A DNA stretch of 64,000 bases from Coraliomargarita sp. (GTDB lineage Bacteria > Verrucomicrobiota > Verrucomicrobiia > Opitutales > Coraliomargaritaceae), in NCBI GenBank assembly GCA_965216325.1, contig OZ244160.1:1312001-1376000 (forward strand), read 5' to 3'. The stretch's first letter is position 1. Each line of letters begins with the position of its first letter. The notes below the pieces were generated by a model. That model searched no databases. It was not told where the DNA came from and saw nothing but the letters and a program-made list of their open reading frames with translations. Position numbers and translations under genes: made by a program. This document shows, one piece after another, positions 6,271-12,503 of the stretch.

Positions 6271-7482
6271 ATGAAGCGACTTAGCCTACTGGCACTAATC
6301 GCCGCACATACAAGCGCATATAGCAACAATGCCCTACTAGACTGGTGGGATGAGCATGGCGACTTCACCATTCGCAACTTAAGCTCAGCATTCGCTCAGC
6401 AGCCAGCCGAAATCCCGCTCTATGAAGGCTTGGGATTTTTACTGGGCACCGAGAGTGACAACATCCTGAACCTTCCCGGCTACAGTCTCGTCAACGAATT
6501 TCGCCCCGAAGCCAGCATCAGCTACGAGCACGCCTTCTTGGAAGTGAAACCGCGCTTCGTCGCGCGCCGTGACTATTTTCGCGAAGGTGAATTCGATGGC
6601 AGCGAAGCCAGCGACGACGAATTCTATATCTATGAATGGGTCGCACAATTCTTCCTCACACCGGAGCTATCGATTTCTTATGGTCGTGAAGACCTGCAAT
6701 GGGGGCCCTCGTTCTTACTCTCACCCTCGAACCCCTTCGATAGTGACAACGGCCGTTCAGAACCGAAAGCCGAAGTGGATAGCGCTGATTACGCGAAAGT
6801 CATCTGGACACCAAACTTTAATTGGACGGTCTCAGCTATCGTCAATACCGATGACGGCCGTAAAGACTATCGTATCGATGACCGGCTCCGCCAAGACTTC
6901 CGCGACATCTATGCGCTCAAAGTCGACTACCTCTTTGAACGCGGCAACGCAGCGGTCATTGCCTCGACGACTGACAGCGCGGAAGACATAGATGAGCGAC
7001 TCGGTTATTACATCAGCTACAACCTTACGGATGCATGGATCGGCTACAGTGAAGGCAGCCTATCAAGCGAAGACGAAGAGCTCCTTCTTGGAGCCAGCTA
7101 CACCTTCCAGAGCGGCCTGAGCGTTGCTGCGGAATATTTCTACAATTCCAGTGGAATCGATGATGATATACCCGAAACTGTTTTTGGACTGATCGATCTG
7201 GGCGATTACCTCACCTCCTTGCCAAATCGCGAAACGTTCTTCCGTGAGCATTACGCGCTGCTGCAGATCTACCAAAACGACGTGTATCGAAGCTTAGATC
7301 TGCTCCTGCGTTATACGCACAATATTGACGACAAATCGAACAGCTTGCTCGGCCATGCCGAATACGACCTAAACGATTACGTTCAATTATTCACCTCTGC
7401 GACTCTGAATAGCAACGGAGGAGGTGAACTCGATAGCCTGAGAGAATACTGGGTGCAGATCGGCGTTGAATTCAGCTACTAG
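6271..7482 (+). CDS. Probable outer-membrane beta-barrel protein
   Basis: Signal peptide, alternating aromatic beta strands, GREDLQWG motif, C-terminal VQIGVEFSY beta signal. Confidence 0.7.
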   Translation: MKRLSLLALIAAHTSAYSNNALLDWWDEHGDFTIRNLSSAFAQQPAEIPLYEGLGFLLGTESDNILNLPGYSLVNEFRPEASISYEHAFLEVKPRFVARRDYFREGEFDGSEASDDEFYIYEWVAQFFLTPELSISYGREDLQWGPSFLLSPSNPFDSDNGRSEPKAEVDSADYAKVIWTPNFNWTVSAIVNTDDGRKDYRIDDRLRQDFRDIYALKVDYLFERGNAAVIASTTDSAEDIDERLGYYISYNLTDAWIGYSEGSLSSEDEELLLGASYTFQSGLSVAAEYFYNSSGIDDDIPETVFGLIDLGDYLTSLPNRETFFREHYALLQIYQNDVYRSLDLLLRYTHNIDDKSNSLLGHAEYDLNDYVQLFTSATLNSNGGGELDSLREYWVQIGVEFSY

Positions 7483-7560
7483 GGCACGAATCACCAGCTG
7501 TCAAATTGTAGATGACATGGGCGTTTATCAGGAGCACGGAAGTGCTATGATGATAAACTT

Positions 7561-8649
7561 ATGCAAAACCCCACATCATCTACACGGACAACTAAGAACG
7601 CACTGGGCACAGTAATCAAGCTTGGCATTGACGTGCATGCGAGCACCTACGTGGTGGTCATGAAGATCGATAGCAGCGCCCCTTCACGCGCGAAGCGCAT
7701 GAAGCCTGATATCTTCCTTCGATGGATTAAGCAGCTGAGCACTCAGTGCGAGCAGTTGCAAAGTTGCTACGAGGCCGGTCCTTTTGGTTACAGCCTGCAC
7801 CGCAAGCTCAAGGCGATGGGCGTGAACAACCACGTAATCCGCCCGATCAACTGGGACACTCATGGTAAGAAGGTAAAGACCGACGCGCGTGATGCGTTGC
7901 AAATGGTCTTGAGTCTGGACGGCTATCTGCGGGGCAATGACCGCAGCTTCAGTGTCGTGCGTGTGCCCAGCGAGCAAGAAGAGCGTCACCGCAGCCTAAC
8001 CCGGCAGCGTGAAAGCTTCGTCAAAGAACGTGGCCGTGCGGCCAAGCGTGGTAAGAGTCTGGGACTGTATTACGATCAACCCTTACCCAGCGGCTGGTGG
8101 AAGCCGCGCAAATGGATGCAGCTACTCGAACAGCTCGACGATTTTTTGATCAGCCTGCTGGAGCCACTGCGGTTAAACTGCCTGCACTTTAGCGAGCTAA
8201 TCAGCAACATCGAAGAACGTATCGAAGCGCTCGAGCCGGAACGGGTGCTGCCTAAAGGCATGGGGGTGGTCCTCTATGAACAGATCGAACGTGAGGTCTG
8301 CAACTGGAAGCGATTCAACAACCGCAAGGCGGTCAGTTCCTTTACCGGACTGTGCCCAAGCGAAGACACTAGTGCAAATCGGCGTTTCCAGGGCTCGATC
8401 AACAAACACGGCAGTCCCCGCCTGCGGCATATGCTACAAGAGTGCGCCTGGTTATTGATCCGGTGGAATCCCGGCTACAGTGGGGTGCGTAAATGGCAGG
8501 CCAAGCTCAGCGACGAGACCACCAGTAAGGCGACCCGCAAGAAAATTGCCGTGGCCATCGCCCGGCAGTTCGCCGTGGACTGGTGGCGCATACGCACTGG
8601 CCAATGCAGTCTCGAAGACTTCGGACTGATAAGCAGACAAAACCCATAA
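7561..8649 (+). CDS. IS110-family DEDD recombinase/transposase
   Basis: GIDVH, CYEAG, KTDARDA RuvC-like DEDD residues; C-terminal GLCPSEDTSA serine loop and INKHGSPRLR. Confidence 0.95.
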   Translation: MQNPTSSTRTTKNALGTVIKLGIDVHASTYVVVMKIDSSAPSRAKRMKPDIFLRWIKQLSTQCEQLQSCYEAGPFGYSLHRKLKAMGVNNHVIRPINWDTHGKKVKTDARDALQMVLSLDGYLRGNDRSFSVVRVPSEQEERHRSLTRQRESFVKERGRAAKRGKSLGLYYDQPLPSGWWKPRKWMQLLEQLDDFLISLLEPLRLNCLHFSELISNIEERIEALEPERVLPKGMGVVLYEQIEREVCNWKRFNNRKAVSSFTGLCPSEDTSANRRFQGSINKHGSPRLRHMLQECAWLLIRWNPGYSGVRKWQAKLSDETTSKATRKKIAVAIARQFAVDWWRIRTGQCSLEDFGLISRQNP

Positions 8650-8713
8650 GTCCGAACCAACGCTAAAGGCCTTCACCCTCTGATTTTAACGTTCTTTTGC
8701 AGTTTTCCTTTGT

Positions 8714-8860
8714 GCGGAGTGAGTCTGACCAAGCCCCTGTTGCCAACACAACGATTTTGTAGAATAGGCCACTTCGCCACCAAGCTTTTGAATGACCCAA
8801 TGGATAGGTCATAGTGTGCTCTTCTGAGAAACACTCAGAAACACGGATAGCAGGTTATCC
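8714..8860 (+). ncRNA. Predicted bridge/seek RNA core with target-binding and donor-binding loops; true transcript ends unknown, may span about 8650-8900
   Basis: Stem 8714-8726/8766-8777 encloses AAGCCCCT and TTGTAG (target matches); stem 8802-8807/8855-8860 encloses GTCAT and ATAGCAG (donor matches). Confidence 0.8.
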
Positions 8861-8985
8861 CGGATCATCGAAACTCCGAGGCCATGCGCGGTGGACGCTC
8901 AAAGACGATTGCAATCAAAACAAACCACTTATCTTATGTAAAAACACTCACACGCTTCTACACTCTTGACAGAAACGAACATAGC

Positions 8986-9227
8986 AGGGGCTTTTCAAGC
9001 GAAGCCCGCAAGACGCTAATTGGCCACGAATACCACTTTGGTAAAGGTTCGACCTGGATTCGGGCTTTAGGGACGACAGTCTCTAGCGGTCCGAGAAAAT
9101 AACTACGTTCGGACGCTTGTGGGTATGTGCCCCTACCAAAACCGCCAAACCTTCTTCAAAACAGAAAACGGACTAAACTCCACCATTCAGCCTGAGCTTC
9201 TGATCGAAGGCAAACGAAGCCCCTACG
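8986..9227. repeat. Inverted pair of GTAG-type REP-like palindromes; the left copy is interrupted by the IS110 element
   Basis: (GT)AGGGGCTT-TTCAAGCG-AAGCCCGC at 8986-9009 and, inverted, CGAAGCCCCTACG ending at 9227. Confidence 0.7.
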
Positions 9228-9290
9228 CCTGCAACTCAAACGCTAACTGAGAGGCTTTCAAACAGACAAAGATCTCAATAAAGTTGAGAT

Positions 9291-11204
9291 ATCGAGTAGC
9301 CGGGAGCGGTTGCCTGCTCCAAGCTCTCACACCACCGGACGTACGGTTCACGTATCACGGCGGTTCCGAAGAAGGATTTCGGCTCTCATCAATTCGAGCA
9401 AATCATAGACAGATAGGAGCTTCATTTGCGTGAAGGCTTTGCGTGGGAGGGCTTGGTTCATGTGAGAGGCTCCGCTGTTAAACCACGCCCCGCGTCCGTT
9501 GTAGCTGCTTTTGCGGGCACATTCGGGGCTGAGCCCAAGCTGCACCAGCTTCCTGTAGCGGGTGTGGGGACGTTTCCACTGTCGCCAGAGGATGCACCGC
9601 AAGCGATGTCGCAACCATTCGTCCAGTTCCCCGGCGAAGGTTTTCGTCTGACTCAGGCGGAAGTAGTTCGTCCAGCCGCGTAGCACTGGATTGAGCGTCT
9701 CAGCGATGAAGCGGCGCAGGTTGCGCCCGCGCCCTTTGCGGCAGAGTTTCCGCAGCTTGGACTTCATCTTTTGAGTCGTCTGTTTGGGCACGCGAATGCG
9801 GCTATGCTTGCCCCCAGTGAAGCTGTAGCCGAGGAAGATCCGGCGGCTCGGACGATCCACCGCGCTTTTGAGGTGGTTGACCTTCAGCTTCAGTTTGGTC
9901 TCCAAATAGTTCGTGATCGAAGCGAGCACACGCTCGCCGCTGCGCTGCGTGGCGACGTAAATGTTACAGTCGTCCGCGTAGCGGCAGAAGCTATGGCCGC
10001 GCTTCTCCAGTTCCTTATCCAGATCGTCCAACATGATGTTGGACAGCAGTGGAGAGAGCGGCCCACCCTGAGGCGTGCCTTTCTCCATGGGTTGAACCAG
10101 CCCGCCGATCATCACTCCAGCTTTAAGCCAGGAGCGGATCAGTTTGAGCATGGCTTTGTCTTTCACATGACGGCGCACCCGCGCCATCAGCAGGTCGTGG
10201 TTCACTTCGTCGAAGAAGGCCTTCAAGTCCATGTCCACGACCCAGTTCTTGCCTTCGTGCTGATACTTTTGCGCCTGTTCGACCGCTTGTCCTGCGCTGC
10301 GTCCGGGGCGGAACCCGTAGCTGTGTTCGCTGAACAGGGGGTCGAAGATCGGGCTGAGTATCTGCAAGGCCGCTTGTTGCAGCACACGGTCAACGATCGT
10401 GGGAACGCCCAGCTTGCGGGTGCCCCCGCCCGGCTTTTTGATCTCCAGACGCAGCACTGCCGGGGGACGATACCTCCCGGTCAGCAACTGCGATTCGATC
10501 TGCTCCCAGTGCGCATTTAGATACGCCAGGCTGGCTTCCATGTCGCGCTCGTCGATGCCCGCTCTGCCGCCGTTGCGGCGCACTTTCTTCCACGCGGCTT
10601 TGATATTGCCGCGCTCGGTCACCTGTCGAATCAGGTCGTATTGGTGAGCAACTCGGTTCTCCAAGGCCGATGGCGCGCTTGATGCGCCCGCATGGACTCG
10701 CCCCAGATGCCGTCCGGTTCCTTCCACGCGGGTCTGACGGGTGGTGCCGCCAGCTTCTGCTTCCCTGCTCTCGCTCATGGTCTCAGTCCTTGTTGTCGTT
10801 CTTCGGTTCGATCCTTCGCCCGCGACCTGTGCAGGCTACTATGATCTCGGCTGACTTCTCTAAACACATCCCAGTGCCTCGCGACACTGGTAGCCAGTAG
10901 CATGTTCAGAGACCTCCCCGGGTAATGCGCACTTACCGTCACACTTATGCCTGCCGCATGTACGCCTGCGCTTTCCGGGCAAGTTTCGGACTTTGAAGTT
11001 CTGTGCCTCCTCATCCAACGCAAACGCCTCTTATGCGATTTCTGTTCGTCAGGCCAGTGCTTTGCCATAGGCTTCCTTCCCACGAACACCTCGCGATGCC
11101 GCAGTTGCCCTTCGGCTAACTCTTCCCCTTGCCGGGCGAGTAACAGACTTTCATCAATTTCCATTAATAATCACTGTCGAGTAAGTGCGCCCTGCCGGGC
11201 GCAC
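9291..11204 (-). mobile_element. Group IIC intron, copy 1 (1914 nt)
   Basis: 5' GTGCGCCCGGC, domain V GAACCGCCG..GTACG..CGGTGGTGTG with CGC triad, domain VI ending CTACTCGAT, inserted directly after a terminator hairpin. Confidence 0.95.
9348..10778 (-). CDS. ltrA: Group II intron reverse transcriptase/maturase, no endonuclease domain
   Basis: RKLGVPTIVDR, SYGFRPGRS, GTPQGGPLSP, YADD, X-domain LRGWTNYF. Confidence 0.95.
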   Translation of the reverse strand: MSESREAEAGGTTRQTRVEGTGRHLGRVHAGASSAPSALENRVAHQYDLIRQVTERGNIKAAWKKVRRNGGRAGIDERDMEASLAYLNAHWEQIESQLLTGRYRPPAVLRLEIKKPGGGTRKLGVPTIVDRVLQQAALQILSPIFDPLFSEHSYGFRPGRSAGQAVEQAQKYQHEGKNWVVDMDLKAFFDEVNHDLLMARVRRHVKDKAMLKLIRSWLKAGVMIGGLVQPMEKGTPQGGPLSPLLSNIMLDDLDKELEKRGHSFCRYADDCNIYVATQRSGERVLASITNYLETKLKLKVNHLKSAVDRPSRRIFLGYSFTGGKHSRIRVPKQTTQKMKSKLRKLCRKGRGRNLRRFIAETLNPVLRGWTNYFRLSQTKTFAGELDEWLRHRLRCILWRQWKRPHTRYRKLVQLGLSPECARKSSYNGRGAWFNSGASHMNQALPRKAFTQMKLLSVYDLLELMRAEILLRNRRDT

Positions 11205-11206
11205 AC

Positions 11207-11240
11207 AAAAAGGCCCTCCAGTGAAAACTGGAGGGCCTTT
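11207..11240 (-). terminator. Intrinsic terminator of the porin gene; intron copy 1 target
   Basis: AGGCCCTCCA-loop-TGGAGGGCCT followed by a T tract. Confidence 0.9.
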
Positions 11241-11264
11241 GATCAGAATATAAAAAGAGCTATC

Positions 11265-12503
11265 TTAGAAAGAGAAGATCAGCTCAACAGCACCGATGAG
11301 TTCATCATACTCTGCATCACCACCACCGGTCAGCACACCACCCGCATCAGCACCGAGATCGCCGTCGCCTTCAGCATAGCTTACTTCAAGCACAAGCAGC
11401 AGGTTATCAGTGAATGCGTAGTTGTGGGCCAGTGTGAACTTAAGCATGTCTGCCTCGATGTCAGCGTCAGCTGAGATTGGTGTGCTTACGTCACCTTCAA
11501 TCTCGTAATCAACATAGCTGATACGACCAGTCACAGATGCCTTCTCGCTGTATGCCCAGTTGGCCATGATCAGACCACCAAGGGAATCAGTTTCGATGTC
11601 AGCAAGAACACCAGAAACCCCTGGCGCATCTGTAGTGTCATCCCACTCATTGTTGCCGTAGAAGAATTCTGCAGCAAAGAACCATGCACCCATTTCATAA
11701 GTAACATAGGTGTTGAAGGTGTAGCTGGTTGTGTCACCGGTATCGATTGCGTCACCAGAGAGACCATCACCGTCTTCATAAGCGAGGCCAACGAACCATG
11801 TGAAGTCTTCAGTTACGTTCCAAGCACCTGCAAGTTCAGCGCCCCAACCGCCACCGTCGACGGACTCGGAACCACCAAGACGGCTGTCGTAGTTTTTGTC
11901 ACCGTCAAGTAGCGAGGCACCAAAGAAGAACTCGTCGCTCTCATATGTGTATTTTACACCTTGAGAGTAGTTTGCGCCAATCGGGAAGATTGTGCCAGTC
12001 AACGCTGCGATATCCTCACCGCCAAGGTCATCAGGAAGGAAGCCAAGACCAAGGTCAAGAAGCTCAGAACCTGCAAAAGGAAGCGAATATGCAGTAGAGT
12101 ATTGGTAAAGACCTGTTGGCTCGAAAGCTTCGAAACCAAGCATCGATGCGAAGCGACCAGCTGTGATCGCACTGCCACCGTCGAAGTGGTAAGTCGCGAA
12201 TGCCTCTTCTACTTCAAGGTCATCACCAGCTTCTTCATATTCAAGATCGATTTGAGCAGTTACCTTGTCGAAGTCGAACAACCAGCTGATTTCAACCTGA
12301 TCTACAGCGAAACTGTTGTCGGAGAAGTCTTCATCAAAGACGTTACCAACGCCGTCAACGTCAGCTTCAGCACTGCCGTCGGCGTGAACGTAGGACATAT
12401 CGATAAAGCCCTCGAAGGAAAGGAAGTCATTGATGACGATCTCACCATACGAAAGGCTGCAAGCCGCAAATGCTGCGGATGTAAGCGCAAGTTTCTTATT
12501 CAT
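11265..12503 (-). CDS. Outer-membrane porin/beta-barrel protein
   Basis: Signal peptide, EGFIDMSY, GRFASMLGFEAFEP, very acidic, ends ELIFSF. Confidence 0.85.
   Translation of the reverse strand: MNKKLALTSAAFAACSLSYGEIVINDFLSFEGFIDMSYVHADGSAEADVDGVGNVFDEDFSDNSFAVDQVEISWLFDFDKVTAQIDLEYEEAGDDLEVEEAFATYHFDGGSAITAGRFASMLGFEAFEPTGLYQYSTAYSLPFAGSELLDLGLGFLPDDLGGEDIAALTGTIFPIGANYSQGVKYTYESDEFFFGASLLDGDKNYDSRLGGSESVDGGGWGAELAGAWNVTEDFTWFVGLAYEDGDGLSGDAIDTGDTTSYTFNTYVTYEMGAWFFAAEFFYGNNEWDDTTDAPGVSGVLADIETDSLGGLIMANWAYSEKASVTGRISYVDYEIEGDVSTPISADADIEADMLKFTLAHNYAFTDNLLLVLEVSYAEGDGDLGADAGGVLTGGGDAEYDELIGAVELIFSF

Follow-up and report, generated by a model that had tools for sequence, protein, structure and literature searches.

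The stretch of DNA analysed here (the window) comprises 64,000 nucleotides of Coraliomargarita sp. (assembly GCA_965216325.1, contig OZ244160.1, positions 1,312,001 to 1,376,000 of the forward strand). At 7512-8987 on the plus strand it carries a 1476-bp insertion sequence of the IS110 family, counting one copy of its AG core, which splits a repetitive extragenic palindromic (REP) sequence between the GTAG head and the hairpin. We conclude, with a probability of about 0.85, that this is an RNA-guided element of IS1111-type layout, active or recently active, which inserts site-specifically by means of a bridge RNA or seekRNA that it encodes itself. Its target specificity is most likely set by this predicted RNA, whose two loop strands match the two sides of the interrupted REP.

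Ends, copies and interrupted repeat

The left junction reads ...AATTGTAG/ATGACATGG (flank ...CAAATTGTAG, followed by ATGACATGGGCG from 7512), and the right junction ...CATAGCAG/GGGCTTTTCAAGCGAAGCCCGC, with ...GAACATAGCAG as the end of the element at 8987 and the remainder of the REP at 8988-9009. A search of the 3.06-Mb genome from which the window derives (own genome, to which all counts refer unless otherwise stated) found nine full-length copies, each covering positions 1-1476 of 1476, and one weak 53-nt match. Eight copies are identical and the ninth carries a single nucleotide polymorphism. The last two bases of the left flank are AG in all nine, identical to those that end the element itself, and the right flank always opens with GGGCTT; the left flank ends with GTAG in eight copies and with GAAG in one. 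The junctions and the boundaries 7512-8987 proposed in the earlier note were thus found again in all nine copies, which have the same ends, and its claim that nothing beyond the 2-nt core is duplicated also held, the shared AG being the only duplication in 9/9 copies. Since the outer flanks vary among the copies, the boundaries are fixed to within this AG. No terminal inverted repeats were seen in any of the nine, and the split point and the orientation relative to the REP were the same throughout. Every copy therefore lies in a REP split at the same point (8 GTAG, 1 GAAG), as predicted for GTAG/GGGC, and none has different ends or non-REP flanks.

The only copy flanked by GAAG (2070236-2071711, locus L009) is also the only one with a base change, at element position 1331 (window 8842), within the inner hairpin of the donor module described below.

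That the interrupted repeat is a true REP, as had been claimed, is shown by 127 unoccupied short palindromes of the pattern GTAG + GGG[CT]-N10-14-[GA]CCC and by a gene for a REP-associated tyrosine transposase (RAYT) accompanied by REPs of the target type. Sorted by the first six bases of the palindrome, the 127 short REPs comprise GGGCGC (43), GGGCGT (30), GGGCTT (21), GGGCGA (9), GGGCTC (8), GGGCGG (7) and others (9). A stricter pattern demanding a perfect palindrome yields 40 sites only, as stems containing G-T pairs escape it. The bare 8-mer GTAGGGGC occurs at 193 sites versus 144 expected from composition, a modest excess; it is the conserved context past the head, not the bare head 8-mer, that defines the family. 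Intact GTAG/GGGCTT sites without the element number 34 (21 short REPs, 8 long variants and 5 others), compared with about 6 expected by chance for a 10-mer in 6.1 Mb of two-strand sequence, and these serve as paralogous empty sites.

Other REPs of the window had been likened to the interrupted one. Those at 56601(+) and 56681(-) do share the GTAGGGGC head and the palindrome, but they belong to a different subfamily (GGGCGCG...). The supposed inverted partner at 9226(-) has a real GTAGGGGCTTCG head but is a degenerate long variant about 217 bp away; because the REP doublets beside the RAYT gene have a spacing of about 27-30 nt, we regard it as an unoccupied target-type site and not as a demonstrated partner.

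The RAYT gene (L054:135-710, genome 1680034-1680609) encodes 191 aa and matches NF047646 with 89.5 bits (cut-off 80) as well as PF01797 (Y1_Tnp). It is bordered on both sides by REP doublets with arms about 27-30 nt apart, the first member of which, GTAGGGGCTTTGCT[TC]GCGAAGCCCGC, is the target type of the element, and its TAG stop codon is part of a GTAG head which forms a perfect target-type site in its own right. The match to the RAYT model and the target-type doublets around the gene therefore indicate a genuine REP/RAYT system. The doublets consist of two REP types in inverted orientation, GGGCTTTGC... and GGGTGTTGC.... Sixteen Y1_Tnp matches were found in the genome; besides the RAYT they include several IS200/IS605-like Y1 transposase genes, among the Y1 genes being three identical copies (28229, 588851, 605977) and the tandem pairs 177015/177578 and 2644702/2645371. 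No GTAG-headed REP adjoins a non-RAYT Y1 transposase gene in this genome. Some REPs of the target subfamily are headed by GCAG, not GTAG, for instance at 859308(+), 859383(-), 1165936(+) and 1266366(-). One REP of this GCAG type reads CGTAGCAG, and the right end of the element itself reads ...CATAGCAG. Such GCAG-headed REPs may be mere variants or may go back to former ends of the element.

Only part of the REP family is used. Six insertions lie in short REPs and three in long variants, all with GGGCTT; the commoner GGGCGC and GGGCGT subfamilies hold none, and neither does the partner arm of the doublets (GGGTGT...). If insertion were blind to subfamily, the chance of six out of six short-REP insertions falling in GGGCTT would be (27/133)^6, or about 7e-5. 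The restriction to the GGGCTT subfamily is explained by the right guide of the predicted RNA, which spans the first six bases of the palindrome. The suggestion of the earlier note that the host's REP family provides safe intergenic landing sites fits in so far as no open reading frame (ORF) of at least 120 aa crosses an element boundary in 7/9 copies, but it applies to the GGGCTT subfamily and not to the whole family.

Transposase, predicted RNA and guides

The gene of the element encodes a transposase or recombinase which matches PF02371 (Transposase_20) with 52.9 bits (cut-off 21.3) and PF01548 (DEDD_Tnp_IS110) with 29.2 bits (cut-off 29). On NF033542 it scores 137.8 bits against a cut-off of 140 (E 4.7e-40, profile positions 2-337 of 343). 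With the catalytic motif defined after Siddiquee et al. 2024 (PMC11187229) as D, E, D, D and a C-terminal serine in G..P....S, the corresponding residues are D24 (GIDVH), E71 (YEAG), D108 and D111 (KTDARDA) and S271 (GLCPSEDTSA), all of them conserved among the intact relatives. The best IS110-family matches on plasmids are 26-32% identical and bear the generic name 'IS110 family transposase'. No chain in the PDB, that of the IS621 recombinase included, matches the protein by sequence at an E value of 0.01 or better.

The gene is preceded by 49 bp and followed by 338 bp of non-coding sequence. A long non-coding region downstream of the gene is the IS1111-type arrangement as described by Siddiquee et al. 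2024 (PMC11187229) and Durrant et al. 2024 (PMC11208160), and the layout, judged from this region and from the order of the guides, is of that type. In the consensus fold of 16 sequences (RNAalifold), two internal-loop modules were predicted within 8714-8860. The alignment consisted of the window and 15 of 20 fetched related loci, which came from Thalassobacterium, Candidatus Synoicihabitans, other Opitutales and Verrucomicrobiota and one Candidatus Sulfotelmatobacter; L031, L037 and L038 were left out as near-duplicates and L039 and L040 as poorly aligned. The coordinates of all features are given in Table 1.

Table 1. Features of the element, its predicted RNA and the adjoining REP sequences (window positions)
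Feature	Position	Strand	Basis
GTAG head of the interrupted REP, left target, AG = core	7508-7511	+	flanks of nine copies
Insertion sequence, IS110 family, IS1111-type layout	7512-8987	+	nine copies; flanks diverge outside
Rest of the interrupted REP, GGGCTT-TTCAAGCG-AAGCCC + GC	8988-9009	+	junction reading, copy flanks
Transposase/recombinase gene, 362 aa	7561-8649	+	ORF, Pfam, NCBIfam, catalytic residues
Predicted target-binding module; stems 8714-8721/8770-8777 and 8723-8727/8765-8769; apical hairpin 8739-8752	8714-8777	+	consensus fold, covariation
Putative right target guide AAGCCCCU, complementary to top-strand AG+GGGCTT	8731-8738	+	match; covaries with right flanks
Putative left target guide UUGUAG, identical to top-strand TTGT+AG, pairs with bottom strand	8757-8762	+	match; left flanks of relatives
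Predicted donor-binding module; outer stem 8802-8805/8857-8860; inner hairpin 8815-8845	8802-8860	+	consensus fold, covariation
Candidate right donor guide GUCAU, complementary to element start ATGAC	8808-8812	+	match
Putative left donor guide AUAGCAG, = last 7 nt of element	8847-8853	+	match; co-change in L032
Candidate left subterminal inverted repeat ATGGGCGTTTATCAGGAG	7517-7534	+	aligns with reverse complement of 8963-8982
Outward-facing TTGACA, -35-like, candidate junction promoter	8966-8971	+	sequence
Stem, left end and flank (7507-7526) with transposase codons 2-8 (7565-7584)	7507-7584	+	20 nt, 80% complementary
Unoccupied target-type head GTAG/GGGCTTCG, degenerate long REP variant	9170-9226	-	REP census

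The first module has an internal loop above two stacked stems; the two strands of this loop, with an apical hairpin between them, are the words matching the target. The DNA word AAGCCCCT is the reverse complement of AG+GGGCTT, and TTGTAG is placed nineteen bases downstream of it, so that the word complementary to the top strand precedes the word complementary to the bottom strand. When the non-coding region was shuffled 200,000 times, an 8-mer and a 6-mer of this kind turned up at the observed spacing in 8 cases. The second module has a short outer stem and an inner hairpin that sets GGUCAUAG apart from GAUAGCAGGU. Over the 32 pairs of the structure, 83.3% of the alignment cells pair, versus 36-48% when the partners are slid by 1-3 columns; 19/32 pairs are changed on both sides, versus 7-13 when slid, and the observed covariation score was reached by none of 500 shuffles. 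No Rfam family matches the non-coding region 8650-8987 at E values up to 1.

The guides vary together with the flanks in the relatives. The right end was recognisable in 14/16 aligned sequences, and in nine of these the 5' loop strand and the core plus right flank are exactly complementary over 8-10 contiguous nt. Several classes of loop and flank words were observed: AAGCCCCU with AGGGGCTT in the present element, UGACCCCU with AGGGGTCA in the Synoicihabitans group, L026 and L034, UGACUCCU with AGGAGTCA in L027, and CGACACCGCU with AGCGGTGTCG in L032. A fifth class, CUCCCCUCCU with AGGAGGGGAG, is provided by a second, single-copy IS110-family element of the own genome (L010:463-1997). The 3' loop strand contains UUGUAG here and in L022, both with a left flank ending in GTAG; in other relatives it contains UUGAAG or AAAG, and their left flanks end in GAAG or AAAG. 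The donor word AUAGCAG is constant, as is the element end, except in L032, where AUAGGAG goes with an end reading ATAGGAG. Relatives with other loop words occupy non-palindromic sites, with variable sequence after GGGGTCA. The closest of the non-REP relatives (53-65% protein identity) have UGACCCCU and GAAG where the present element has AAGCCCCU and GUAG. Conversely L022, an element 72% identical, has the same guides and the same GTAG/GGGCTTC flanks, and its host has a REP family of its own (GTAGGGGCTTCAC...); the pattern GTAGGGGCTTYGC gave 0 matches in the L022 genome, and a shorter head pattern found there a REP with a different inner palindrome.

The second element of the own genome is 1535 bp long and has the same RNA scaffold with another loop word. 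It is inserted at ...CCCCTCCTCGTCAAG/GAGGGGAGTTTTGGG, on the loop side of a terminator-like palindrome (hairpin + T-run). In Candidatus Synoicihabitans palmerolidicus (L024, L030, L031, L037) several copies have a transposase gene disrupted by 3-8 in-frame stops or frameshifts, and the RNA region is still conserved in them.

Taken as a mechanism, the 3' non-coding region would encode and express a bridge RNA or seekRNA of about 150 nt (8714-8860), which the recombinase would bind. In its target loop AAGCCCCU would pair with top-strand AG+GGGCTT and UUGUAG with the bottom strand of TTGT+AG, and the second loop would pair with the joined ends of the element, AUAGCAG with the right end and core and GUCAU with the left end. 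Strand exchange at the shared AG, carried out by the DEDD recombinase, would then give the landing point between the GTAG head and the hairpin of GGGCTT... REPs, a single orientation and a duplication of AG only. The copy flanked by GAAG implies that the left guide would tolerate one mismatch. Comparable RNA-guided mechanisms have been shown experimentally for relatives by Siddiquee et al. 2024 (PMC11187229) and Durrant et al. 2024 (PMC11208160).

The transposition intermediate would probably be a circle with a junction promoter, formed by the right-end TTGACA and the left end. In the circle junction TTGACA would stand 17 nt ahead of the left-end TGACAT, and the region around it, CTCTTGAC, is conserved in the relatives. 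A promoter scan of 7400-9300 returned 0 sites, so it is the TTGACA itself that points to a junction promoter. The left end and its flank may in addition form a stem with the beginning of the gene (Table 1). The 3' arm of this stem, CCCACATCATC, is kept in 8/12 rows (window, L022 and six relatives), has one change in L024, L026 and L028 and is absent in L029; its conservation extends to third codon positions, and the 2-nt mismatch is constant. The stem may block translation of read-through transcripts by folding back, and would be lacking from a transcript begun at the circle junction. The same word was considered as right donor guide and rejected, as it does not track the flank in relatives.

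Alternatives and relation to known elements

Several observations weigh against an RNA-guided insertion as proposed here. Five of the 14 sequences (L028, L029, L033, L035, L036) lack a clean match between loop and flank; some of these may be decayed copies or have ends mis-set by the pattern used to recognise them. The aligned relatives include many copies that share one genome and hence are not independent. The single-sequence fold of 8690-8900 is as stable as its shuffles (z = -0.11), so it is the covariation that argues for the structure. The left-target match is short (4-6 nt) and mismatched in the GAAG copy. The base preceding GTAG is T or C in 9/9 copies, with which a guide U could pair by A-U or G-U, and the same holds for 29/34 unoccupied sites; as this is the background state, the base adds little to the argument. 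After the candidate right donor guide GUCAU comes AG instead of the complement of the core, which departs from the description of IS621. The alignment of the subterminal inverted repeat, which begins 6 nt from each end, is equalled in score by 113/1000 shuffles; relatives L023, L026 and L029 have the repeat at the corresponding place, where it matches more clearly. None of the listed public sequencing runs that contain the stretch is recorded as RNA. The contigs of four public runs over 7000-9300 contained no joint that skips the element and no circle junction. An orthologous empty site was not found among 40 relatives, where the gene to the left matched in only 3 genomes; with 65-66% nucleotide identity these are too distant to show one.

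The strongest alternative, though in our view an improbable one, is that recognition of the REP depends mainly on its DNA structure (a hairpin or cruciform) or on the element's protein itself, with the RNA matches being secondary; in a milder form both would be needed. A palindrome does lie directly to the right of the core at every occupied site, the GTAG/GGGCTT sites that are not REP-like are unoccupied (4/4), and a 2026 preprint on ISPpu10 (bioRxiv 10.64898/2026.03.19.712850) describes a target stem-loop that adds specificity beyond base pairing. The counts of occupied sites fit either model, since 8/38 REP-type versus 0/4 non-REP sites are occupied. However, 3/9 insertions lie in long variants, where about 27 nt break up the palindrome or the palindrome differs; the subfamilies GGGCGC (43) and GGGCGT (30), whose hairpins are just as good but have another first arm, are never used, and relatives with other loop words occupy sites that are not palindromic. 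Far less credible is insertion without site specificity, with copies outside harmless REP sites lost to selection. REPs are intergenic and insertions there are less likely to be harmful, but selection accounts neither for the identical nucleotide position, orientation and REP subfamily in 9/9 copies nor for the match to the element's own loop sequences, and the identity of eight copies suggests a recent burst that left little time for such a sieve. The view that GTAG and GGGCTT... are part of an element with mis-set boundaries can be set aside: collapsed-repeat contigs of the isolate's runs do reach 7510 and 8994, a few bases past the proposed ends, but the right flanks diverge after GGGCTT (TTCAAGCG, TGCTTGCG, CGCTTGCGGAG with a compensating change, and the long variants), 34 intact GTAG/GGGCTT sites are free of the element, and the same REP type surrounds the RAYT gene.

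The element most resembles the seekRNA elements of the IS1111 group (ISEc11, ISKpn4, ISPst6, ISPa11), for which the description in PMC11187229 gives a DEDD transposase and a long downstream non-coding region. In these elements the RNA likewise has two short segments in the same order, the match to the top strand coming first, and only the core is duplicated; in this group, too, a related element with different guide words sits at a different target. The protein of the present element is distant, as judged from its plasmid-borne matches and its NF033542 score, and has a serine motif S-A instead of the S/T-G of that paper. IS1111 elements have subterminal inverted repeats of 7-17 bp; that of the present element is weak. 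ISPa11 targets Pseudomonas aeruginosa REPs, and all copies of ISPa11, ISPpu9 and ISPpu10 lie at one REP position according to Tobes and Pareja 2006 (PMC1525189). The relatives of the present element are found in Opitutales-type Verrucomicrobiota, with one Acidobacteriota record.

IS621 of E. coli, a distant IS110-group element and the model for bridge RNA, with which the element had been compared in the earlier note, does target REPs, as it claimed (Durrant et al. 2024, PMC11208160), so that the likeness holds for the natural target; it does not extend to the layout, which is of IS1111 type and not of IS621 type. As in the bridge RNA described in that paper, where the left guide pairs with the bottom strand, the right guide with the top strand and both include the core, the present RNA is predicted to have target and donor internal loops, a bottom-strand left guide, a top-strand right guide and a 2-nt core overlap, except at GUCAU. 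The IS621 target ATCAGGCCTAC, read on the other strand (the strand flip being our reading), aligns its CT core with the AG of a GTAG head, and the two elements thus appear to use the same position of the head. In contrast, the IS621 RNA is described as lying upstream of the gene with the guide order reversed, and its long guide covers the palindrome arm as left target, which in the present element is the right target.

ISPpu9 and ISPpu10 of Pseudomonas putida KT2440 likewise use one REP position with a 2-bp repeat (PMC1525189, PMC12288879), in another host phylum and with another REP family. ISPpu10 has a target stem-loop beside the guide-paired bases (bioRxiv 10.64898/2026.03.19.712850), as here, but its stem-loop is placed 5' of the left target as described, while the hairpin in the present case starts with the right target itself.

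Genomic setting and significance

Among 100 other genomes of the same family, one has the 3' region of the element, at 78% identity, and also a REP family of its own, GTAGGGGCTTCACTTGTGAAGACCGC. Counted on both strands, GTAGGGGCTT occurs 31 times in that genome versus 17 for a reversed-pattern control, compared with 8 (control 8), 4 (11) and 3 (15) in three genomes of the same genus without the element and 19 (19) in another family member. In this small sample of six genomes (the own genome included), a clear excess of the target 10-mer over the control is confined to the two genomes with the element. In the isolate's sequencing runs the element stands at about 8.4-8.6x the depth of its flanks. 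A marine metagenome run (X5) contains a 1332-nt contig of the element corresponding to window 7669-8994 with one difference (C to T at 7776); as this contig covers most of the element up to the region of the right boundary, the element or its host occurs in this marine sample type.

A long ORF stops 8-29 nt before the left end in 4/9 copies, including the window copy, where a 403-aa ORF (6271-7482) ends 29 nt before the element. Of the two copies with ORFs across their boundaries, that at genome 2983896 has a 720-aa minus-strand ORF extending 26 nt into the element and the other has three ORFs of 127-150 aa. In the reconstructed empty sites, stop-to-stop frames of at least 80 aa run across 6/9 sites, which cannot be judged as genes. 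The element may use REPs because these are numerous, lie between genes and do no harm when interrupted.

To the right of the element a group II intron occupies 9291-11211 (-), with a second full copy at 58894-60814 (-). Its ORF for a reverse transcriptase/maturase (9348-10778) matches RVT_1 and GIIM, and Rfam matches were found for D1-D4 and domain V/VI; over 6500-12500, at E values up to 1, Rfam gave only group II intron families and a chance match to U7. Six full-length copies of about 1921 nt and four ORF-less derivatives of about 1162 nt are present in the genome, and in 10/10 copies the 5' junction lies directly after a terminator-like GC-rich hairpin and T-run. Insertion after terminator-like sites is the behaviour of bacterial class C introns.

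The element is a new and fairly divergent addition to the known REP-targeting, RNA-guided IS110/IS1111 elements. Because REP targeting, known in this family since the 2000s, and guidance by bridge RNA or seekRNA, shown in 2024, have already been published, it is not novel in kind, and the current understanding of these elements is unchanged. For annotation it provides the element ends, a predicted RNA gene and an explanation for nine 'interrupted REPs', and it adds a REP-targeting lineage whose target-binding loop can be read from the sequence. It also illustrates, beyond the proteobacterial models, how guides of the IS1111-type branch can be re-aimed in nature. The RNA scaffold and the donor ends are shared among related elements, and block changes in the two loop strands would shift the target, here from a plain word of 12-14 nt to one made up of a REP subfamily's head and first stem arm. 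Wider readings are tentative. It is possible, though we think it rather unlikely, that the lineage was naturally re-aimed onto the very part of the REP that the RAYT maintains, that the GTAG head is a recurrent core site reached convergently by IS110/IS1111 elements across phyla, and that the element parasitises the REP/RAYT system. If this were true, each insertion would part head and hairpin, so that the REP concerned could no longer serve the RAYT as a substrate, and the element would be a parasite of the REP/RAYT system more than a tenant of safe sites.

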